Below are positions 4,861-62,820 of a DNA stretch of 64,000 nucleotides, piece after piece. How positions within the stretch are numbered: position 1 is the stretch's first letter; each line of letters opens with the position of its first letter. Source of the stretch: Escherichia coli (GTDB taxonomy: Bacteria; Pseudomonadota; Gammaproteobacteria; Enterobacterales; Enterobacteriaceae); assembly GCF_003018255.1 (NCBI RefSeq), contig NZ_CP027440.1; one strand, 5' to 3'. The notes below the pieces were generated by a model. The model was not told where the DNA came from. It was given only the letters and a program-made list of their open reading frames with translations, and did not search any database. The position numbers and the translations under genes are program-made.

Positions 4861-4929
4861 CTGCACCATGATGTGAATGTTGCACCAATATAGTGCTTCA
4901 ATGGAAACATTAAGCACCATATTGGTGCA
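4861..4929. promoter_or_regulatory. NtrC (NRI) upstream activator sites for glnAp2
   Basis: TGCACC...GGTGCA-type dyads read at 4881-4896 (tgcaccaatatagtgc) and 4914-4929 (gcaccatattggtgca), plus a further tgcacc repeat from 4861. Confidence 0.65.
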
Positions 4930-5080
4930 ATGACCTTTGGATAACCCTTTTTATGCTCCGTGAAAGCGATCACAAAGGGACTCTGCAATACTTGTTTGCG
5001 GAGGATGTTTGTGATCCTGTTTTGTAGTGCGATTAATCCGTGTACAATAACGCGCTATTTCTAATGCCTGAGGCAAAGTT

Positions 5081-7838: not shown

Positions 7839-8819
7839 ATGGTGACAATAAATAACGCAAGAAAGATTCTACAACGTGTCGACACTCTTCCTCTTTATTT
7901 ACATGCTTATGCCTTTCATTTAAATATGCGGCTGGAAAGAGTGTTGCCTGCTGATTTACTTGATATCGCAAGTGAAAATAATCTACGTGGCGTCAAAATC
8001 CATGTTCTGGATGGCGAGCGTTTTTCTCTTGGTAATATGGACGATAAAGAACTCTCTGCCTTTGGGGATAAAGCCCGCCGTCTGAACCTTGATATTCATA
8101 TTGAAACCAGCGCTTCAGATAAGGCATCTATTGACGAAGCCGTCGCCATTGCGTTGAAAACTGGGGCATCGTCCGTACGTTTTTATCCACGTTATGAAGG
8201 TAATTTGCGCGACGTATTATCGATCATCGCTAACGACATTGCCTATGTACGGGAAACGTATCAGGACAGCGGCCTGACTTTTACGATCGAACAGCATGAA
8301 GATTTAAAAAGCCATGAGCTGGTGTCGCTGGTCAAAGAAAGTGAGATGGAATCTCTTTCCTTACTGTTTGATTTTGCGAACATGATCAATGCAAATGAGC
8401 ATCCCATCGACGCTTTAAAAACGATGGCACCGCATATTACCCAGGTCCATATCAAAGATGCCTTGATCGTTAAAGAAGAGGGTGGCCTGGGTCATAAAGC
8501 CTGTATTTCAGGTCAGGGTGATATGCCGTTCAAAGCGTTATTAACGCACCTTATCTGCCTGGGTGATGATGAGCCGCAGGTGACGGCATATGGCCTGGAA
8601 GAAGAGGTTGATTACTATGCGCCGGCGTTCCGCTTTGAAGACGAAGATGATAATCCGTGGATCCCTTATCGCCAGATGAGTGAAACACCATTGCCAGAAA
8701 ATCATTTACTGGATGCGCGGTTACGTAAAGAAAAAGAAGATGCAATTAATCAGATAAATCATGTGCGTAATGTACTACAACAAATCAAACAAGAGGCAAA
8801 CCATCTTCTGAACAACTAA
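7839..8819 (+). CDS. yihM: Sugar-phosphate isomerase/epimerase (xylose-isomerase-like TIM barrel) family protein, 326 aa
   Basis: ORF-track peptide; position and length match K-12 YihM. Confidence 0.8.
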   Translation: MVTINNARKILQRVDTLPLYLHAYAFHLNMRLERVLPADLLDIASENNLRGVKIHVLDGERFSLGNMDDKELSAFGDKARRLNLDIHIETSASDKASIDEAVAIALKTGASSVRFYPRYEGNLRDVLSIIANDIAYVRETYQDSGLTFTIEQHEDLKSHELVSLVKESEMESLSLLFDFANMINANEHPIDALKTMAPHITQVHIKDALIVKEEGGLGHKACISGQGDMPFKALLTHLICLGDDEPQVTAYGLEEEVDYYAPAFRFEDEDDNPWIPYRQMSETPLPENHLLDARLRKEKEDAINQINHVRNVLQQIKQEANHLLNN

Positions 8820-8920
8820 TAAGTTTTAACTCATACGCTGTTAATAAAACCATTCCATATGAATGGTCGGTATCTTATTGCCTTTAAAACAGTGATTTTA
8901 AAAATCGCTTAGGGGATGTT

Positions 8921-10186
8921 ATGCTCACGAAAAAGAAATGGGCGTTATTTAGTCTATTAACATTGTGTGGCGGTACAATTTATAAATTACCGTCTCTGAA
9001 AGATGCGTTTTATATCCCGATGCAGGAATATTTCCATTTGACCAATGGTCAAATTGGTAATGCTATGTCGGTAAACTCATTTGTCACCACAGTGGGCTTT
9101 TTTCTGTCTATTTATTTTGCCGATAAACTACCGCGCAGATACACCATGTCATTCTCACTCATTGCGACAGGATTACTGGGTGTTTATTTGACGACAATGC
9201 CGGGGTATTGGGGCATCCTCTTTGTCTGGGCGCTATTTGGCGTTACTTGCGACATGATGAACTGGCCGGTCTTGCTCAAGTCGGTAAGTCGATTGGGCAA
9301 TAGCGAACAACAAGGTCGGTTGTTTGGCTTCTTCGAAACAGGGCGTGGCATTGTCGATACCGTGGTGGCATTTTCTGCGTTGGCAGTATTTACCTGGTTT
9401 GGCAGTGGCTTATTGGGTTTTAAAGCAGGCATCTGGTTCTATTCCCTTATTGTGATTGCCGTAGGCATTATCATTTTCTTTGTCCTGAATGACAAAGAAG
9501 AGGCACCGTCCGTTGAGGTGAAAAAAGAAGACGGAGCATCGCAAAACACCAGTATGACCTCGGTGCTGAGAGATAAAACCATCTGGCTTATCGCTTTCAA
9601 CGTCTTCTTCGTTTACGCGGTTTACTGTGGCCTAACATTCTTCATTCCATTCCTGAAAAACATCTATCTATTGCCCGTTGCTCTGGTGGGGGCTTACGGC
9701 ATCATTAACCAATACTGTCTGAAAATGATTGGAGGACCGATTGGTGGCATGATTTCAGATAAGATCCTGAAATCGCCGAGTAAATATCTATGCTACACCT
9801 TTATCATAAGTACCGCTGCGCTCGTACTGTTGATTATGCTGCCGCACGAAAGTATGCCGGTCTATTTAGGGATGGCATGTACGCTGGGCTTTGGCGCTAT
9901 AGTCTTCACACAGCGAGCCGTATTTTTTGCACCTATCGGCGAAGCAAAAATTGCTGAAAATAAAACAGGCGCGGCGATGGCGTTGGGTAGCTTTATTGGT
10001 TACGCCCCGGCGATGTTCTGCTTCAGTCTGTATGGCTACATTCTGGATTTAAATCCGGGGATTATTGGCTACAAAATCGTGTTTGGCATTATGGCCTGCT
10101 TCGCATTCTGTGGTGCGGTGGTTTCCGTAATGCTGGTTAAGCGTATTAGCCAACGTAAGAAAGAGATGCTGGCGGCTGAAGCTTAA
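8921..10186 (+). CDS. yihN: MFS transporter, 421 aa
   Basis: Polytopic membrane protein; position and length match K-12 YihN. Confidence 0.85.
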   Translation: MLTKKKWALFSLLTLCGGTIYKLPSLKDAFYIPMQEYFHLTNGQIGNAMSVNSFVTTVGFFLSIYFADKLPRRYTMSFSLIATGLLGVYLTTMPGYWGILFVWALFGVTCDMMNWPVLLKSVSRLGNSEQQGRLFGFFETGRGIVDTVVAFSALAVFTWFGSGLLGFKAGIWFYSLIVIAVGIIIFFVLNDKEEAPSVEVKKEDGASQNTSMTSVLRDKTIWLIAFNVFFVYAVYCGLTFFIPFLKNIYLLPVALVGAYGIINQYCLKMIGGPIGGMISDKILKSPSKYLCYTFIISTAALVLLIMLPHESMPVYLGMACTLGFGAIVFTQRAVFFAPIGEAKIAENKTGAAMALGSFIGYAPAMFCFSLYGYILDLNPGIIGYKIVFGIMACFAFCGAVVSVMLVKRISQRKKEMLAAEA

Positions 10187-10245
10187 TTAGTGGCCGGATG
10201 TGCTTAATCCGGCCAACGAAAACCGTATCAACCGAAGTTTCAATT

Positions 10246-11034
10246 TCAGGATACTTCTTGCTCGGCAACCACCAGTTCAACATTCTCTTCACTTAACAAC
10301 TGGCAGAAAGAATTGGGAGGCGGGGCATCAGTAAAAAAAGCCCTGACATTCCGTGCATTGCCAATTGAAACGGCAGCAGACGCGGTAAACTTCGTATGAT
10401 CGGCCACTAACAATGTATTCCGCGCATGTTTAATCATCGTTCTCGCGACTAACGCTTCATTGACATCAAATTCCAGTAGGGTGCCGTCATGTTCAATGGC
10501 ACCTATACTGGTGATTAAATAATCTGCGCGGAAGCCTTCAATAAAATCCACGGCTCCTGGGCCGATAATCCCACCGTTATGAGCGCGTAAAGTGCCTCCC
10601 GGCACCATCACTTCAATATCCTGATTCTTATAAAGAATCTGTGCCACACGCAGGCTATTAGTGATAATGCGTAAATCACGCCGGTTGAGTAATGCCCTGG
10701 CAACGGCTTCTACGGTTGTACCGATGGTGATAAAGACGGTACAGCGTTCGGGAAGGTAATCGGCGACTGCCTCAGCGATCGCCCGTTTCTCGGCGGTGAG
10801 CGAAAGTTCCCGTTGCTCAAAAGCGGTATTCATGACGCTGGAGACGCGCCCGGCCCCTCCATGATGACGGGTGATCAAGCCCTGCTCACTGAGTTTTCGG
10901 ATATCCCGGCGCACGGTTTGCGTTGAAACATCCAGCAGTTGTGCCAGTTCTTCAATATTCATATAACCGCGTTCTGCGATTAGATGAACGAGTTGGTCAT
11001 GGCGTGGATTACCTGTCACTTCGATGATACTCAT
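10246..11034 (-). CDS. DeoR-family transcriptional regulator (YihW/CsqR-like), 262 aa
   Basis: N-terminal HTH (IEELAQLLDVSTQTVRRDIRKL) and DeoR C-terminal sugar-phosphate-binding domain; ATG read at 11032-11034 with upstream RBS. Confidence 0.8.
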   Translation of the reverse strand: MSIIEVTGNPRHDQLVHLIAERGYMNIEELAQLLDVSTQTVRRDIRKLSEQGLITRHHGGAGRVSSVMNTAFEQRELSLTAEKRAIAEAVADYLPERCTVFITIGTTVEAVARALLNRRDLRIITNSLRVAQILYKNQDIEVMVPGGTLRAHNGGIIGPGAVDFIEGFRADYLITSIGAIEHDGTLLEFDVNEALVARTMIKHARNTLLVADHTKFTASAAVSIGNARNVRAFFTDAPPPNSFCQLLSEENVELVVAEQEVS

Positions 11035-27143: not shown

Positions 27144-30100
27144 TTACACCTTTTCCACATTCACAAGGAAGGACTTAAACTCCGGCGTCTGCGTGTTCGC
27201 ATCACCGACGAATGGCGTCAACGTATTGGCAATAAAGCCTTTTTTCGCAACACCTTCATAGCCCCAGTGAATCGGAATACCGATGGTATCGATATCTTTG
27301 CCGTTTGCTTTCAGCGTGCGAATACGTTTGGTCACTACCGCTTTGGCTTTGATATAGCCACGGTTGGAGGAGACTTTCACAGTATCGCCCTGGGCAATGC
27401 CAAGTTTATTCGCCAGCGACTCCCCGATTTCCACAAACTGCTCTGGTTGCAAAATCGCATTCAACAGCGCGTGTTTGGTCCAGTAGTGGAAGTGCTCGGT
27501 CAGACGATAGGTGGTTCCGACATACGGGAACTTATCGGCTTTACCCAATGCTTCGGCGTCGTCTTTAAAGATACGCGCAGCCGGGTTCGAGATAACGTTT
27601 GGATGCAGCGGGTTAGTTCCCAGCGGCGTTTCAAACGGCTCGTAGTGTTCCGGGAACGGACCTTCCGCCATCTTATCGAGGGCAAACAGACGTCCCATGC
27701 CTTCCTGCTGCATGATAAACGGCCCTACGCCGCTGCCCGGAGGCGCTGCGCTGTAGTCCGGAATATCCCAGCCGGTCCACTTAGTGCCGTCCCATTTCAG
27801 CAACTGACGCTTCGGATCCCATGGGTTACCCTGCGGATCTGCGGAGGCGCGGTTATACAGAATGCGGCGGTTAAGCGGCCATGCCCATGCCCAGCCCAGC
27901 GTGTTACCGAGGCCAGACGGATCGGCGTTATCACGACGCGCCATCTGGTTACCTTCTGGCGTCCAGCTACCGGCGAAAATCCAGCAGCCACAGGAGGTCG
28001 TACCGTCATCGCGCAGTTGGGCGAACGAGCTAAGTTGTTGGCCTTTCTTGACGATAACCGCACCGGTTGCCGGATCGGTAATATCGGCCAGCGCCTTACC
28101 GTTGCTCTCCATCGCCACTTCTTCCGACTTCGGCTCATGCGGAATGGCGTAGTTCCAGGTCATATTCAGCACCTGGTCCGGGTTTGCGCCACCCTGTTCG
28201 GCATACATCTTGCGCAAGCGCAGGAAGATACCGGAGAGGATCTCGCCATCAGTCAGCGCAATCCCTGGGGCGTCCGCACCTTTCCAGTGCCACTGTAACC
28301 AGCGACCGGAGTTAACGATTGAACCGTTCTCTTCTGCGAAGCAAGTCGATGGCAGACGGAACACTTCGGTCTGGATCTTCGACGAGTCAACTTCGTTCAG
28401 CTCACCGTGGTTCTGCCAGAAGTTAGAGGTTTCAGTGTTCAGCGGGTCGATGGTGACGAGGAACTTCAGTTTCGACAGACAACCGATCACTTTGTTTTTG
28501 TTCGGGAATGAGGCAACAGGGTTAAAGCCCTGGCAGATATAGCCATTGACCTTGCCTTCTTTCATCATCTCGAAGTATTGCAGGACGTCGTAGCCTTTAT
28601 CCCACTTCGGCAACCAGTCAAAGCCCCAGCTATTTTCCGCCGTCGCTTTATCACCAAAGAATGCCTTCATCATTGAGACGAAGAATTTCGGGTAGTTGCC
28701 CCAGTAGTTGACCTGGCCTTCCAGCAGTGGTTTTGGCGTGTTGGCAGCGAGGTAAGTTTGCAGATCGGTCTGCTTCTCGCTTGGCAACGTCATGTAACCT
28801 GGCAGACTCTGCGACAGCAGCCCCAGGTCGGTCAGCCCCTGAATATTGGAGTGACCGCGCAGGGCGTTAACGCCGCCGCCAGCCATCCCCATATTGCCGA
28901 GCAGCAACTGGATCATCGCCATCGTACGAATGTTTTGCGCACCAATGGAGTGTTGCGTCCAGCCGAGCGCGTAAAGGAACGAGGCAGTTTTATCGTGAGC
29001 ACTGGTCTCAGCGATGTATTCGCAGACTTTCAGGAATGCGTCTTTTGGCGTACCACAGATGTTTTCAACCACATCTGGCGTGTAGCGGGAAACGTGCTGT
29101 TTCAGCAAGTTCCACACGCAACGTGGATGTTGCAGGGTAGTATCGCGTTTGGCGAAGCCGTTTTCGTCCAGTTCGTAAGTCCAGGAGGATTTATCGTACT
29201 TACGTTTTTCCGCGTCATAGCCGGTGAACAGGCCATCTTCAAAGCCGTAATCCTCACGCACGATCAGGCTGGCGTTGGTATAGGCTTCGGTGTATTCGCG
29301 GTTGAATTTTTCATTGTTCAGCAGGTACAGCAATACGCCTGACAGGAAAGCAATGTCAGTACCGGAACGAATAGGGGCATAGTAGTCAGCTACCGCCGCC
29401 GTACGCGTAAAGCGAGGATCGATCACAATCAGCTTCGCGCCATTGTGAATTTTGGCTTCCATCGCCCAGCGGAACCCGACCGGGTGAGCTTCAGCGGCGT
29501 TACCGCCCATCACCACGACGAGGTTGGCGTTCTTGATGTCGACCCAGTGGTTGGTCATCGCACCGCGACCAAATGTTGGAGCAAGACTTGCTACCGTTGG
29601 TCCGTGTCAGACACGCGCCTGGTTGTCGACCGCGAGCATACCCAGCGCGCGGGAGAATTTTTGCGTTAAATAGCCGGTTTCGTTACTCGACGCGGAAGCA
29701 CACAGCATCCCGGTGGAGAGCCAGCGGTTAACGGTCACGCCTTCGGCGTTTTGCGCAATGTAGTTAGCATCGCGGTCTTCTTTCATCAGTTTGGCGATGC
29801 GATCAAACGCCTCTTCCCAACTGATTTGCTGCCATTTATCAGAACCTGGCGCACGGTATTCCGGAAACTTCAGACGGCTTTCGGAGTGGATGAAATCCAC
29901 CAGGCCAGCGCCTTTCGGACAAAGTGCACCGCGGTTGACCGGGTGATCCGGGTCACCTTCGATATGGAAGATAGATGCTTTGGCGTTTTTTGCTCCGTCA
30001 CCGAGGCTGTACATCAACAGCCCACAGCCTACGGAACAATAGGTGCAGGTATTACGGGTTTCGCGGGTGCGCAGCAGTTTATACTGCCGGGTTTCCGCGA

Positions 30101-30194
30101 GTGCTACGCTGGGTGCAAAACCCAGTGCCGCTGCCGTGGTGCCTGCCATACCGCCAGCGCAGATCTTAAAGAACTGCCTTCTGCTGACCTGCAT
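27144..30194 (-). CDS. fdoG: Formate dehydrogenase-O catalytic subunit, selenoprotein with in-frame UGA (Sec) at 29607-29609; about 1016 aa
   Basis: ORF track splits the gene into 29607..30194 (Tat signal MQVSRRQFFKICAGG...) and 27144..29558; both are in the same frame and the sequence after the UGA reads H-G-P-T-V-A-S. Confidence 0.92.
29560..29606 (-). promoter_or_regulatory. Putative SECIS element directing selenocysteine insertion at the fdoG UGA
   Basis: mRNA immediately 3' of the UGA (CACGGACCAACGGUAGCAAGUCUUGCUCC...) in the position of bacterial SECIS hairpins; structure not computed. Confidence 0.5.
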
Positions 30195-30387: not shown

Positions 30388-31221
30388 GTGAAAAAAACAC
30401 AGCAAAAAGAAATCGAAAATGTGACAAATATCACAGGTGTTCGTCAAATTGAGTTATGGCGGCATGATGATTTACAACACCCACGGTTAGATGAGGTGGC
30501 GGAAGAAGTTCCCGTTGCGCTGGTCTACAACGGTATTTCGCATGTGGTGATGATGGCGTCGCCCAAAGACCTTGAGTACTTTGCGCTCGGTTTTTCGCTT
30601 TCCGAGGGGATAATCGAAAGTCCGCGCGATATCTTCGGCATGGATGTCGTTCCTTCCTGTAATGGTCTTGAAGTTCAAATTGAGCTTTCCAGCCGCCGCT
30701 TTATGGGGTTGAAGGAGCGTCGCCGGGCACTGGCGGGACGTACGGGATGTGGCGTGTGCGGCGTGGAGCAACTTAATGACATCGGAAAACCGGTGCAGCC
30801 GCTACCGTTCACCCAGACGTTTGATCTCAACAAACTGGATGATGCATTACGTCATCTCAATGATTTTCAGCCAGTGGGGCAACTGACCGGTTGTACTCAC
30901 GCCGCCGCCTGGATGTTGCCATCTGGCGAACTGGTCGGCGGGCATGAAGACGTGGGTCGCCATGTGGCGCTGGACAAACTGTTAGGCCGCCGGTCACAAG
31001 AAGGGGAAAGCTGGCAGCAAGGTGCGGTACTGGTTTCCAGCCGTGCCAGTTATGAAATGGTGCAAAAGTCGGCGATGTGCGGCGTAGAGATTTTGTTTGC
31101 GGTGTCTGCCGCGACCACACTTGCTGTAGAAGTGGCTGAACGCTGTAATTTGACGCTGGTGGGCTTTTGTAAACCGGGTCGGGCAACGGTTTATACCCAT
31201 CCGCAGCGTTTGAGCAATTAA
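30388..31221 (+). CDS. fdhD: Formate dehydrogenase sulfurtransferase FdhD, 277 aa
   Basis: ORF-track peptide [28 protein letters not shown]... Confidence 0.93.
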
Positions 31222-31270: not shown

Positions 31271-31933
31271 GTGAATTTTATTATTTTATTTATAAACAAA
31301 ACGCGTGTAGTGGCGTTAACGCCTGCGTTGCAACCTATTGATGGCGTGGCGGTGAGTTATATTGATGCTGCCGTAGCGTTGGGTAATACCATTAACGAAA
31401 TGGATAAATATTACATCCAGGAAAATTATAAAGACGATGCGTTTGCGAAAGGGAAAACGCTGCACCAGACATTCTTAAAAAATCTGGAAGCCTTTGAACC
31501 TGTAGCAGAATCTTATCATGCGGCGATTCAGGAAATTAATGACAAGCGCCAGCTTACGGAATTGAAAAATATTGAAGAAAGAGAAGGGAAAACATTCCAC
31601 TACTACTCTCTGGCAGTCATGATTTCAGCGAAACAAATTAATAACCTGATATCGCAAGATAAGTTTGATGCAGAAGCGGCAATGAAGAAAGTGTCTGAAC
31701 TGGAAACGCTGGTGGCGCAGGTCAAAGAAGCGGATAAAAGCGGCATGAATTTCTCGTTTATTAATTCGGCAGGCCAGTATCAACTCGAGGCTAAAAAATA
31801 CGTTCGCCGCATCAGAGATAAAGTCCCGTACTCTGACTGGGATAAAGAGCAACTTCAGGACGCAAACTCAAGCTGGATGGCCGAAGACTCATTTCCCGAG
31901 AGCATTATGCGAGTACAACGAAATGGTCGATGA
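31271..31933 (+). CDS. YiiG-position ORF, up to 220 aa from a GTG start; no signal peptide; possibly a 5'-truncated remnant
   Basis: Begins directly after the fdhD terminator; K-12 YiiG as recalled is a longer lipoprotein; first ATG is well inside the frame. Confidence 0.4.
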   Translation: MNFIILFINKTRVVALTPALQPIDGVAVSYIDAAVALGNTINEMDKYYIQENYKDDAFAKGKTLHQTFLKNLEAFEPVAESYHAAIQEINDKRQLTELKNIEEREGKTFHYYSLAVMISAKQINNLISQDKFDAEAAMKKVSELETLVAQVKEADKSGMNFSFINSAGQYQLEAKKYVRRIRDKVPYSDWDKEQLQDANSSWMAEDSFPESIMRVQRNGR

Positions 31934-32353
31934 AATATTTCAGTCAATTGTAATCGCGGAGCGGGTTTGTGATGAGCGCGGATATGTCACGAAGTCGTGA
32001 CAATATAAAGCAGAGTGAAGGATAAATTTTGTGAATAAAGTATCATTATTTAATGATTTTGTGAATGTTTAAATGTCTCAGATAATTTGTTTAAGCGTTA
32101 TTTATATTTGTGGCTTATGAGTCAGCGTGAATCATATCTAATATTTTTTACGATTTTTAGTTAAAAACGGCACTATTGTTATATTCCTCACGTTCCAGGA
32201 AATCAGCGGATTTACTCATATTATGCAGCGGGATACTATCCATCGGCCTGCTGAAGTTGGATTAAAAATTCGAAAGTGCACACCTTATATTTCTCTATAT
32301 ACGTATTCCTTTTGGAAAGCGTAGGGTCTCTTTTATTTCAGGGAACGTAAATA

Positions 32354-33748
32354 ATGAAAAAATCGACATTATCTTTAGCCATCGGTTTATTATTGGCATG
32401 TAGTACCGGAATGGCAAAAACACAGCATTTAACGCTGGAACAACGCATGGCATTGCTGGAAGAACGCCTGGAAGCGGCAGAAATGCGGGCAGCAAAAGCA
32501 GAGAGCCAGGTTAAACAGCTGCAGACACAACAAGCCGCTGAGATCCGCGAAATTAAGGCTGCCCAGGGCAATACGCCGGTAAATGGACAGGCAACGGCGG
32601 AATCTGCAAAGAAAAATTCCACCTCACCTAATCTTTTGCTCTCAGGTTATGGCGATTTAAAAATCTACGGCGACGTAGAATTTAATATGGATGCGGAAAG
32701 TAATCATGGCCTTCTGGCAATGACCAACGCTGATGTGAATAGCGATCCCACTAATGAACAGTGGAATCTCAATGGTCGTATTCTGTTAGGTTTTGATGGT
32801 ATGCGAAAACTGGATAATGGTTATTTCGCCGGGTTCTCCGCACAACCGCTGGGGGACATGCACGGTTCAGTAAATATCGATGATGCGGTATTCTTCTTTG
32901 GCAAAGAAAACGACTGGAAGGTCAAAGTAGGTCGTTTTGAAGCCTACGATATGTTCCCGCTGAATCAGGATACCTTTGTTGAACATTCCGGTAATACTGC
33001 GAACGATCTTTATGACGATGGCAGCGGTTATATCTATATGATGAAAGAGGGCCGCGGGCGCTCTAACGCTGGCGGTAATTTCCTCGTCAGCAAACAACTT
33101 GATAACTGGTATTTTGAATTAAACACGTTACTTGAAGACGGAACATCTTTATATAATGACGGTAATTATCATGGACGCGATATGGAGCAGCAGAAAAATG
33201 TTGCTTATCTGCGTCCAGTAATTGCCTGGTCGCCGACGGAAGAATTCACCGTTTCCGCAGCGATGGAAGCGAACGTAGTAAATAATGCTTATGGTTATAC
33301 CGATAGCAAGGGTAATTTTGTCGATCAGTCCGATCGTACCGGCTATGGTATGAGCATGACCTGGAATGGCCTGAAAACGGATCCGGAAAATGGTGTCGTG
33401 GTTAATCTTAATACCGCCTATTTAGATGCTAATAATGAGAAAGATTTCACTGCCGGGATTAACGCGCTGTGGAAACGTTTCGAGCTCGGTTATATCTACG
33501 CGCACAATAAGATTGATGAATTCAGCGGTGTAGTTTGTGATAACGACTGCTGGATTGATGATGAAGGGACGTACACCATTCACACCATTCATGCGTCTTA
33601 TCAGTTCGCTAATGTGATGGATATGGAGAACTTTAATATTTACCTCGGGACGTATTACTCCATTCTGGATAGCGACGGTGATAAAAAACACGGTGATGAT
33701 ACTGATGACCGTTACGGGGCACGCGTTCGCTTTAAATACTTCTTCTGA
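32354..33748 (+). CDS. Outer-membrane beta-barrel porin with N-terminal coiled-coil extension (carbohydrate-porin-like), 464 aa
   Basis: Signal peptide MKKSTLSLAIGLLLACSTGMA, heptad-rich segment LEQRMALLEERLEAAEMRAAKAESQVKQLQ, alternating beta-strand pattern, C-terminal ...RFKYFF. Confidence 0.7.
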   Translation: MKKSTLSLAIGLLLACSTGMAKTQHLTLEQRMALLEERLEAAEMRAAKAESQVKQLQTQQAAEIREIKAAQGNTPVNGQATAESAKKNSTSPNLLLSGYGDLKIYGDVEFNMDAESNHGLLAMTNADVNSDPTNEQWNLNGRILLGFDGMRKLDNGYFAGFSAQPLGDMHGSVNIDDAVFFFGKENDWKVKVGRFEAYDMFPLNQDTFVEHSGNTANDLYDDGSGYIYMMKEGRGRSNAGGNFLVSKQLDNWYFELNTLLEDGTSLYNDGNYHGRDMEQQKNVAYLRPVIAWSPTEEFTVSAAMEANVVNNAYGYTDSKGNFVDQSDRTGYGMSMTWNGLKTDPENGVVVNLNTAYLDANNEKDFTAGINALWKRFELGYIYAHNKIDEFSGVVCDNDCWIDDEGTYTIHTIHASYQFANVMDMENFNIYLGTYYSILDSDGDKKHGDDTDDRYGARVRFKYFF

Positions 33749-33756
33749 TGAAGTCG

Positions 33757-33781
33757 CGGTGCTGGATATTTTCCGGCACCG
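33757..33781. terminator. Bidirectional hairpin between the porin gene and rhaM
   Basis: Imperfect inverted repeat cggtgctgg...ccggcaccg between convergent stops. Confidence 0.45.
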
Positions 33782-33788
33782 CAACTCA

Positions 33789-34103
33789 TTAAGGCAGGTA
33801 AAACACTTCTTGCAGCTCGCTACTGACTGGGCTGTTATCCGGGTTAGTTGGCATAACGTCGGTCATATATTTCCACCAACGTTGGCAAACATCAGTACTG
33901 GCTACCGCATTCCACCGTTCTTCAGATTCAATCTCTACCGTGGCAAACAGCAGATTACGCGCTTTGTCGAGGTAAATGGCGTAGTTATGCGCACCGTGAG
34001 ATTTCAACACTGCTTCCAGTTCCGGCCAGATTGGATTATGACGACGCTGATACTCTTCGTGGGCGTCGGGGTTAACCTGCATGACAAAGGCTTTGCGGAT
34101 CAT
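33789..34103 (-). CDS. rhaM: L-rhamnose mutarotase, 104 aa
   Basis: ORF-track peptide [30 protein letters not shown]...; ATG read at 34101-34103. Confidence 0.93.
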
Positions 34104-34112
34104 GTTTGCTCC

Positions 34113-34937
34113 TTACAGCGCCAGCGCACTGGCGAGTGGTGTAACGCCGAAACGCTGGCCGAGCGCTATCAGCTCTTCACGACTGATGGTCTGTTTCATG
34201 CCGCCCATCGAATAAACCTTCACTAATACTTGTGCTGATTTTTCTGCGGTGTCGATTAAACCGAATGTTTCATCCAGTGTCGGACCGCTGCCGAAGACGC
34301 CGTGGAAGGGCCACAACACCAGCGAATGTTTTTGCATTTCCTGTGCGGTCGCCTGGCCGATTTCGTCGGTGCCGGGCACCATCCACGGCAAAATGCCGAC
34401 GCCATCCGGGAACACTACCAGACATTCGGTGCTGCCTTCCCACAGTTGGCGAGTGAAGACCGCGGTGTCGTTTTCCAGTACGTAGGTAAGGGCGATCAGG
34501 TTGGTGGCATGGCAGTGCATGATCACCCGATCTTTACCGTTGGTGGCTTTAATGCGCTCGCAGTGGGAGAGAAAGTGAGCCGGAAGTTCGGAAGTGGGGA
34601 CGGCTTTGTTGGTTAACCCCCAAAGAATGTGGTAGCCCGCGCCGTCGCTGTCGACTTTTACGATGCCTAAGTTAGCCGCAGGATCAAGCTGGACGTTACG
34701 GAAGAATTTGCCTGAGCCGGTGACAATAAACGGTGTATTTGCCAGTAAAGGCATGGGCTGGCTGAGCGGGATATAGCGCGGTTGTTGGTGAAAATTGTCG
34801 TGATATGGTGCGATATCGGCGTCATCCAGGCGCAGCGTCAGGTTGCCGCCGTTGCGCTCGTCCCAGCCTTTCAGCCAGGCGTCGGTGGTGGCTTTAATCA
34901 TTCCCTGGACAAACCAGGACTGAGTAATGTTTTGCAT
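34113..34937 (-). CDS. rhaD: Rhamnulose-1-phosphate aldolase, 274 aa
   Basis: ORF 34113..35030 with start at internal ATG ([32 protein letters not shown]...). Confidence 0.93.
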
Positions 34938-34969
34938 GTTCGGTGTTCCTGTTAATTGGACGTCCGTGC

Positions 34970-35118
34970 CTGTTGCCGGATATACGATCTGTAGGCCGGA
35001 TAAGGCACTCGTGCCGCATCCGGCAATCAATGCCTGATGCGACGCTGTCGCGTCTTATCAGGCCTACAACTATTGCCGACCCGTAGGCCGGATAAGGCAC
35101 TTGTGCCGCATCCGGCAG
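34970..35118. repeat. REP/BIME cluster in the rhaD-rhaA intergenic region
   Basis: Repeated gtaggccggataaggc...gccgcatccggca and gcctgatgcgacgc...cttatcaggcctac units. Confidence 0.75.
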
Positions 35119-43902: not shown

Positions 43903-44045
43903 GTGTAGGCCTGATAAGACGCTATCAGCGTCGCATCAGGCATCCTGCTCAAATGCCGGATGCGGCGTAAACGCCTTATCCTGCCTACAAAACCCATAAA
44001 TTCAACAGGTTTTGTAGGCCTGATAAGCGTAGTGCATCAGGCATT
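43903..44045. repeat. REP/BIME cluster between yiiM and cpxA
   Basis: gtaggcctgataagacgc...gcatcaggc and gccggatgcggcgtaaacgccttatc units read directly. Confidence 0.75.
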
Positions 44046-49034: not shown

Positions 49035-49135
49035 TGCCTGATGCGCTTCGCTTATCAGGCCTACATGAATTCTGCAATTTATTGAATTTGCGAACTTTTG
49101 TAGGCCGGATAAGGCGTTCGCGCCGCATCCGGCAT
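49035..49135. repeat. REP/BIME elements after pfkA
   Basis: gcctgatgcgcttcgcttatcaggcctac and gtaggccggataaggcgttcgcgccgcatccggca read directly. Confidence 0.75.
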
Positions 49136-62221: not shown

Positions 62222-62752
62222 TTACGCTTTGTAGCTTAATTCTTCGATGGTGTGGAAATGGTTGGTATAGATGCAAATGTCGCCTGCAATATCCAACGCC
62301 TTTTCAGCAATTTCACGGGCGCTAAGTTCAGTGTTTTCTAACAGCGCGCGCGCCGCAGCCTGGGCGTAAGGGCCGCCGGAGCCGATAGCAATAAGATCGT
62401 TTTCTGGCTGCACCACGTCACCGTTACCGGTGATGATAAGCGAAGCGGTTTCATCCGCGACTGCCAGCAGTGCTTCAAGTTTGCGCAGCATGCGATCGGT
62501 ACGCCAGTCTTTTGCCAGCTCAACGGCGGCTTTGACCAGATGGCCCTGATGCATTTCCAGTTTACGTTCAAACAGTTCGAACAGCGTAAAAGCATCCGCA
62601 GTACCGCCCGCAAAGCCCGCGATGACTTTGTCGTTGTACAGACGGCGGACCTTTTTCACGTTGCCTTTCATTACGGTATTGCCCAACGTGGCCTGACCAT
62701 CACCAGCGATGACCACATGGCCGTTACGGCGTACGCTTACTATAGTTGTCAC
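62222..62752 (-). CDS. hslV: ATP-dependent protease subunit HslV, 176 aa
   Basis: N-terminal Thr protease peptide [31 protein letters not shown]... Confidence 0.97.
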
Positions 62753-62820
62753 GAGCTGACCCCTTGGTTACGAATACAGAGTACAAACCCCGTACAAAAG
62801 TACGGGGCATAATGCAATTA

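Follow-up and report, generated by a model that had tools for sequence, protein, structure and literature searches.

A solitary chromosomal porin, very probably of the RafY glycoporin family, beside the rhamnose genes of Escherichia coli

Known relatives of the porin we discuss here are found on plasmids. On IncF plasmids, a porin 78-79% identical to ours lies directly after rafR-rafA-rafB-rafD (encoding a LacI regulator, a GH36 α-galactosidase, an MFS permease and a GH32 protein), and this order is the published rafR-A-B-D-Y (PMC4809568). For the porin of that set, RafY, two papers give maltose, sucrose and raffinose as the sugars taken up (PMC4809568 and PMC12987596, both citing Ulmke 1997). 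RafY was reported to be a general diffusion pore, not a specific porin (Andersen 1998, cited in PMC4827864). A homologue annotated rafY2 occurs in O157:H7 strains that have no rafRABD, and raffinose uptake together with LacY has been suggested for raf-less E. coli (PMC4809568); this paper is the sole mention of a chromosomal rafY2 that our literature search found. Elsewhere in the family, lactulose induces a homologue in Salmonella (PMC13304739). In Klebsiella pneumoniae, the porin GlyP is repressed by the LacI-type regulator GlyR, and its up-regulation alone is sufficient for an advantage in carbohydrate competition in an OmpK35/36-deficient background; RafY-family porins are said there to have a larger pore than OmpK35/36 (bioRxiv 10.64898/2026.03.29.715108).

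Our gene sits in a 64,000-nucleotide stretch of E. coli chromosome (the window), which runs through fdoI-fdoH-fdoG, fdhD, a yiiG pseudogene and the porin to rhaM-rhaD-rhaA-rhaB on the opposite strand, and then to rhaS-rhaR. The coding sequence occupies positions 32354..33748 on the plus strand and runs from ATG to TGA, encoding 464 amino acids plus the stop, exactly the product that the original prediction, made from the DNA letters, had placed there. It is the sole long frame at the locus; the opposite strand is full of stop codons, and a Shine-Dalgarno-like AGGGAA (32340-32345) lies 9 nt 5' of the ATG. RefSeq lists the product in the best-matching strain (99.9% identical) as WP_000749944.1, 'carbohydrate porin'. 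No NCBIfam family matches it at E <= 0.1, so a curated NCBIfam HMM is not the source of that name. We consider the protein very likely to belong to the RafY glycoporin family (PF16966 Porin_8, TCDB 1.B.15), as an orphan encoded on the chromosome. The gene is already known in kind, the family being in Pfam and TCDB, the gene annotated in RefSeq and the O157:H7 copy in print.

The protein runs MKKSTLSLAIGLLLACSTGMA ... RFKYFF, and its first 21 residues (32354..32416, plus strand) look like a cleavable signal peptide, which is how they had been read at the outset. The layout is of the Sec type, MKK followed by a 12-residue hydrophobic core (mean Kyte-Doolittle 2.3) and then G-M-A/K, and in an alignment of 17 homologues both A21 and K22 are nearly invariant, so this reading has held up, with cleavage after A21 deduced from the conserved A-K junction. 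The E. coli copies also have a cysteine, Cys16, which creates a lipobox-like LLAC. Citrobacter, Kluyvera and the other chromosomal orthologues do not share this cysteine, so we set aside the reading as a lipoprotein and, on the alignment, favor cleavage of the precursor by signal peptidase I at A21/K22 over lipidation of Cys16.

Behind the signal peptide comes a helix. The original prediction was of a coiled coil of roughly 60 residues; the heptad pattern is there, and the length has to be cut, since AlphaFold2 gives a single helix of 44 residues, 28-71 (32435..32566, plus strand), which would lie in the periplasm. In one heptad register, with M32, L39, A46, V53, Q60 and I67 at the a positions and L28, L35, A42, A49, L56, E63 and A70 at the d positions, 11 of the 13 core positions are hydrophobic, a count equalled by 49 of 5000 shuffles. 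The 17-homologue alignment adds an invariant motif within the helix (E29 Q30 R31 L35 E36 R38 L39 E43 R45 A49 E50). Pfam finds Sugarporin_N (PF11471) here as a weak match, E 0.06; among the 17 homologues, the same domain reaches E <= 0.001 in five and E <= 0.1 in 16. These matches suggest that the N-terminal module may be related to the ScrY-type extension, and it would be the sole part that our protein shares with ScrY-type porins. From the helix, a low-complexity linker of residues 72-99 (32567..32650, plus strand) leads on to the barrel; it is predicted to be disordered, at 72-97 in the model (pLDDT <50 at 71-97), is little conserved and carries indels among homologues. Many RafY-family members, of 350-390 aa, have no N-terminal helix at all.

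The rest of the protein is where its family identity is decided. The porin-family HMM search found Pfam PF16966, 'Porin-like glycoporin RafY', at E 3.7e-154 (513.7 bits), aligning residues 104-464 with the whole model, 1-372 of 372, and the same family matches all 17 aligned homologues. It is a small family, with 233 representatives at E <= 0.001 when 1.84 billion proteins are searched. AlphaFold2, run with a 58-sequence alignment, returned a model with mean pLDDT 80.2 and pTM 0.71, in which residues 100-463 form 16 long β-strands and barrel pLDDT is mostly >90. The barrel as a whole covers residues 100-464 (32651..33745, plus strand), and its strand number agrees with the 16 that TCDB gives for family 1.B.15 (PMC4827864). 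A region of β-barrel character closing on a C-terminal phenylalanine had been foreseen, and structure prediction and alignment both bear this out: the C terminus, RFKYFF, resembles a β-signal, F464 is invariant in the 17 close homologues and nearly so (at least 90%) in the 58-sequence family alignment, and Y462 is invariant in the latter.

The original prediction looked elsewhere for relatives, to ScrY-like or OprB-type porins, and we had to ask how much of that to keep. On such a reading the protein would be a sugar-specific porin of the LamB/ScrY or OprB family, with a saturable binding site (the greasy slide) and an 18-stranded or OprB-type barrel. The idea is not without attractions: there is an N-terminal coiled coil as in ScrY, with its weak Sugarporin_N match, there is the RefSeq name 'carbohydrate porin', and TCDB clusters the RafY family nearest to the sugar porin family (PMC4827864). 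The barrel tells otherwise. A Pfam scan at E <= 10 gives no LamB (PF02264), OprB (PF04966) or Porin_1 (PF00267) match, neither the porin sequence nor the family profile finds LamB or ScrY by sequence in the PDB, and an 18-stranded LamB/ScrY-type barrel is not what is predicted. In the fold comparison of our model, OprB (19.4), ScrY (18.0) and maltoporin (17.8) rank lower, and the top Foldseek matches in AFDB are proteins named raffinose porin, glycoporin or carbohydrate porin, followed by phosphate-porin-like 16-stranded barrels. PDB sequence searches with the porin, its N-terminal segment and the 58-sequence family profile gave noise or no match, and sequence and profile alike found no solved structure of a RafY-family member there. 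What survives of the ScrY/OprB guess is a carbohydrate porin with a periplasmic coiled-coil module; the barrel family does not survive, and we think membership of the LamB/ScrY or OprB families highly improbable.

To return to the RafY-type barrel, its strands 5 and 6 are joined by a long loop of residues 195-240 (32936..33073, plus strand), placed by the model between strands E188-194 and E241-249. It is the longest loop and the best-conserved stretch of the RafY family, G193-G241 being dense with invariant residues. Porins with 16 strands carry a constriction loop, L3, between strands 5 and 6. By analogy, the loop at 195-240 is likely to be the equivalent of L3 and to constrict the pore.

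Where does the gene occur, and in what company? Compared by blastn with K-12 MG1655, similarity ends at 31933 in the 3' part of yiiG and picks up again at 33788, where rhaM stops. The 1854 bp between (31934..33787, plus strand) comprise the porin's promoter region, the gene and a downstream hairpin, and in their place K-12 has frvRXBA and ~150 bp of unrelated DNA. We recognize three types of locus in E. coli: yiiG-frvRXBA-rhaM without the porin in K-12; yiiG-frvRXBA-porin-rhaM, with the porin divergent from frvA, in O157:H7 and E. coli B; and yiiG'-porin-rhaM in the window and in AZ161, with frv deleted and yiiG truncated at its 5' end. Of 5426 complete E. coli genomes, 2543 (47%) carry the porin segment at >=80% coverage, and a 3-kb query across the window-type junction reaches that level in 1166 genomes.

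Outside E. coli, the orthologues of Citrobacter and Kluyvera (83-85% identity) occupy the same place, convergent with rhaM and standing alone. In other relatives, sugar genes lie next to the porin. Klebsiella sp. B345 has the orthologue at the fdhD...rhaM locus after homologues of rafR (65%), rafA (70%) and rafB (75%); Pseudocitrobacter has a GntR-PTS-GH4 module between porin and rhaM; and in K. grimontii, a LacI-MFS-β-helix module takes that position. Further members of the family close clusters for oligosaccharide utilization, as does a Buttiauxella homologue at the end of an ABC transporter/GH13/GH130 cluster. Because the neighboring sugar modules differ in this way among genera, the porin is the constant element of a variable sugar-utilization hotspot that extends from fdhD to the rha genes. 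Plasmid pRHB27-C22_5, with its order MFS-GH32-porin-rhaM-rhaD, raised the possibility that the porin is what remains of an MFS + GH32 island. This reading fails: on chromosomes, the MFS/GH32 portion belongs to another locus, and the two portions occur together in none of the genomes, so the plasmid is a mosaic.

Upstream of the gene, an alignment across four to five genera shows little conservation beyond a few blocks, namely a CRP-like site, TTTAC(T) and TAnnnT. The first, TGTTA-N6-TCACG (32177..32192, plus strand), is a putative activator site; it has the best CRP-consensus score upstream of the porin in each of E. coli, Kluyvera, Klebsiella, Pseudocitrobacter and Citrobacter. By a crude scoring scheme, which also recovers the CRP sites of rhaB-rhaS and of the rhaT region, it ranks 12th of the ~64,000 positions of the window, just under the known rha CRP sites, and it departs from consensus in both half-sites (TGTtA, TCACg). 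Downstream, TTTAC and a TAnnnT hexamer 16-17 nt beyond it are conserved in E. coli, Kluyvera and Pseudocitrobacter. Conservation is what leads us to propose a sigma-70 promoter here (32211..32239, plus strand), with TTTACT (32211-32216) as the -35 and TACTAT (32234-32239) as the -10, separated by a 17-nt spacer. Only 8 of its 12 consensus positions match, which is why it is not among the sites, all at chance level, that a consensus promoter scan returned. The distance from the CRP-like site to the -35 is a constant 18 nt across genera, with varying sequence between them. Transcription would then start near 32246, by our estimate, leaving a 5' UTR of ~108 nt and setting the CRP-like site at about -61.5, the class-I position. 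From its sequence, the promoter thus appears to be of the class-I CRP-dependent kind. As for RNA structure, Rfam gave nothing at E <= 1 between 31900 and 33900, and the putative 5' UTR folds no better than shuffled sequence (z 0.01), which left a TTCC-N4-GGAA palindrome unsupported as a structural element.

A gene that stands alone and is so unevenly distributed invites the suspicion that it is a relic, the functionless leftover of a chromosomal raf cluster that has been lost, now on its way to becoming a pseudogene. The raf partner genes are indeed absent from the locus, the adjoining yiiG is a pseudogene and, in the locus type of the window, frv has been deleted. The porin gene is also dispensable, about half of complete E. 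coli genomes, K-12 included, lacking it, and truncated forms exist: a common one has lost its N-terminal part, beginning at M123 and measuring 342 aa (P0057, 496 member sequences), so some strains carry disrupted copies. Against this stands the sequence of the gene itself. The frame is intact in all the copies we compared, and its 464 codons are preserved both in distant E. coli and in other genera. In comparisons with O157:H7, E. coli B and AZ161, dN/dS is 0.05-0.09, and with plasmid RafY it is 0.14 (from genus to genus, dS is saturated); purifying selection on the porin is strong. These values and the Pfam E-value put the feature well clear of chance. The promoter elements are conserved as well, and in Citrobacter and Kluyvera the porin stands alone just as it does here. 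We therefore regard decay from a lost raf cluster as very unlikely.

That leaves the neighbors. The rhaM stop codon lies 40 bp 3' of the porin, with rhaMDAB convergent, and to this extent the original claim that no transporter or catabolic genes are linked to the porin fails on position; it stands for a permease or hydrolase of the raf type, of which there is none at the locus within the window. Between the porin stop (33748) and the rhaM stop (33789) is a GC-rich hairpin (33755..33781, no strand assigned) with ΔG -33.1 kcal/mol and z -7.9, a stability that none of 200 shuffles attains. There is no T-run on either side, so we do not call it a terminator; it is probably a transcript-end or insulating element for the porin and rhaM. 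Convergent order and hairpin together mean that the two genes are not co-transcribed. E. coli K-12 uses rhamnose without the porin gene. The proposition that the porin is the entry channel of the L-rhamnose system, for rhamnose or rhamnose-containing oligosaccharides and co-regulated with rhaBADM, can draw on an adjacency to rhaM kept in Escherichia, Citrobacter and Kluyvera (and a position near rhaM in Klebsiella and Pseudocitrobacter), but we hold it to be very improbable, given that ability of K-12, the convergent genes with a strong hairpin between them, an upstream region that does not significantly resemble the promoter regions of rhaBAD/rhaSR or rhaT, the other sugar modules that part the porin from rhaM in Pseudocitrobacter and K. 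grimontii, and the raf genes that precede the porin in one Klebsiella. The adjacency of porin and rha genes looks positional rather than functional.

How might a RafY-type orphan work? The Sec signal peptide would export the precursor, and the C-terminal Y-x-F motif would direct its insertion by BAM. The mature protein would fold into a β-barrel of 16 strands and, as its structural neighbors do, probably assemble as a trimer, with the conserved 46-residue loop folding inward to set the size of the pore. The 44-residue heptad helix would hang in the periplasm, probably as a trimeric coiled coil as in ScrY, whose extension it appears to match in kind. By homology with RafY, we would expect a wide, non-saturable diffusion pore and not a sugar-binding channel, passing di- to oligosaccharides (candidates are maltose, sucrose, raffinose-type α-galactosides and maltodextrins) faster than OmpF/OmpC do, sugars above the size limit usual for porins included. 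The original prediction, which listed the substrate as unknown, was too pessimistic, to judge by the maltose, sucrose and raffinose named for RafY (PMC4809568, PMC12987596). If its own promoter depends on CRP, as it appears to, the gene would encode a catabolite-repressed 'hunger' porin.

Put together, these elements lead to a proposal that we offer tentatively and consider possible though rather less than likely: that this RafY-type orphan acts as a 'hunger' channel activated by CRP, which about half of the lineages of E. coli retain without its being tied to a catabolic operon of its own, and whose wide pore gives oligosaccharides, and possibly bulky antibiotics, a standing route of entry. 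If this is true, the presence, absence or truncation of the porin would be an overlooked determinant of nutrient competition in the gut, and also of how permeable the outer membrane is once OmpF/OmpC are gone, the situation reported for GlyP in Klebsiella. With 47% of complete E. coli genomes carrying the gene and K-12 without it, a view of outer-membrane permeability drawn from K-12 leaves something out for many clinical and animal strains. The conserved architecture of the CRP-like promoter, for its part, makes a simple, testable prediction about how this alternative porin is controlled. As a discovery the gene carries little weight, the family being curated, the gene annotated and the O157:H7 copy published.

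It remains to set the porin beside the systems it resembles. Plasmid RafY (pRSD2 type) is likewise 464 aa long, with an equal layout of signal peptide, helix, linker and barrel, 78-79% amino-acid identity over 97-100% of its length, a conserved cysteine pair (C395, C399) and the same C-terminal RFKYFF. It differs in setting and control: the window copy is chromosomal and has no rafR-A-B-D before it, the upstream regions are unrelated, DNA similarity beginning only within the coding sequence, and the CRP-like site of the window copy has no counterpart of comparable score in the plasmid copies. The rafY2 of O157:H7 and the 'carbohydrate porin' of E. coli B, UTI89 and others are the same gene at the same locus, with 98.9% amino-acid identity; in O157:H7 and E. 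coli B, however, the porin is divergent from an intact frvABXR and yiiG is intact, whereas the window has lost frvRXBA and retains yiiG as a pseudogene truncated at its 5' end.

GlyP of Klebsiella pneumoniae is another RafY-family 'alternative' porin (bioRxiv 10.64898/2026.03.29.715108); it is encoded in an operon of regulator, permease, hydrolase and porin, whereas the gene of E. coli is solitary. ScrY and BglH, of the LamB family (PF02264 with PF11471), probably have in common with the window porin the periplasmic N-terminal coiled-coil module, of the motif family LEQRL..LE.RL..AE.RA, and a physiological role in oligosaccharide uptake, which for our porin is a prediction. The 16-stranded trimeric porins OprP, Omp32, OmpU/OmpT and DcaP differ from it in sequence, with identity of only 8-14% and no common Pfam family detected, and in selectivity, which in their case is for phosphate, anions or dicarboxylates. 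With OmpF/OmpC (PF00267), the resemblance is at the level of the fold only, with no profile match.

The gene on the fdhD side of the porin is a remnant. It is yiiG, encoding a DUF3829 lipoprotein, which at 31271-31933 (+) has decayed to a pseudogene: some 470 bp present in K-12 have been deleted, the start codon among them, and the final 19 nt of its 3' end are gone at the point where the porin segment joins. The loss of frvRXBA and the deletion in yiiG are one and the same event. In strains that have kept frvABXR, represented by E. coli O157:H7 and E. coli B, the porin is transcribed divergently from the cryptic frv PTS operon, and frvA and the porin share an intergenic region of about 476 bp in which the CRP-like site lies.

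Around 40 nt 5' of the porin ATG there is also a small palindrome, TTCCTTTTGGAA (32307-32318), with counterparts upstream of the porin in Citrobacter (TTCCTACAGGAA) and Kluyvera (ATTCAAATAGTGAAT). It may serve as an operator or have an sRNA-related role. A folding test of the porin 5' UTR found no significant structure. Within the coding sequence, the signal peptide of the E. coli copies carries LLAC, its cysteine being Cys16 (codon 32399-32401), and this fits the lipobox pattern of lipoproteins; V/A-A-N takes its place in Citrobacter, Kluyvera and the other chromosomal orthologues. At the opposite end of the gene, a very stable hairpin, GCGGTGCTGGATATTTTCCGGCACCGC (33755-33781; ΔG -33 kcal/mol, z -7.9), lies where the porin and rhaM converge, between their stop codons. 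Neither strand shows a T-run at this hairpin, which is part of the segment that K-12 lacks.

Elsewhere in the window, an in-frame TGA splits fdoG (27144-30194, -) into two apparent ORFs, 27144-29558 and 29607-30194. The gene is not broken: this TGA encodes the selenocysteine of formate dehydrogenase-O, and an Rfam match to SECIS_3 (84 bits) sits at 29554-29612, on the very spot. The top CRP-consensus match of the entire window, AAATGTGACAAATATCACAGGT (30417-30438), falls just within the start of fdhD (ORF from 30388) and adjoins the fdhD-fdoG divergent region. Rfam also returned, above gathering score, the ES222 sRNA (4892-4999), the ES036 sRNA (49057-49098) and the ClpQY (hslVU) heat-shock promoter element (62750-62807), and it scored the REP-type repeats at 34994-35064 and 43908-43985 as naRNA4. 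Such repeats number one in the rhaD-rhaA spacer here, against three to four in tandem in K-12.

The porin has also turned up away from the chromosome. An IncI-type conjugative plasmid, pRHB27-C22_5 (CP057400.1), carries at 7840-10588 a 2.7-kb chromosomal fragment running porin-rhaM-rhaD, 98% identical to 32193-34941 of the window, and adjoining it are MFS and GH32 genes that originate from a different chromosomal locus. This plasmid fragment shows that mobilisation of the chromosomal porin is possible.
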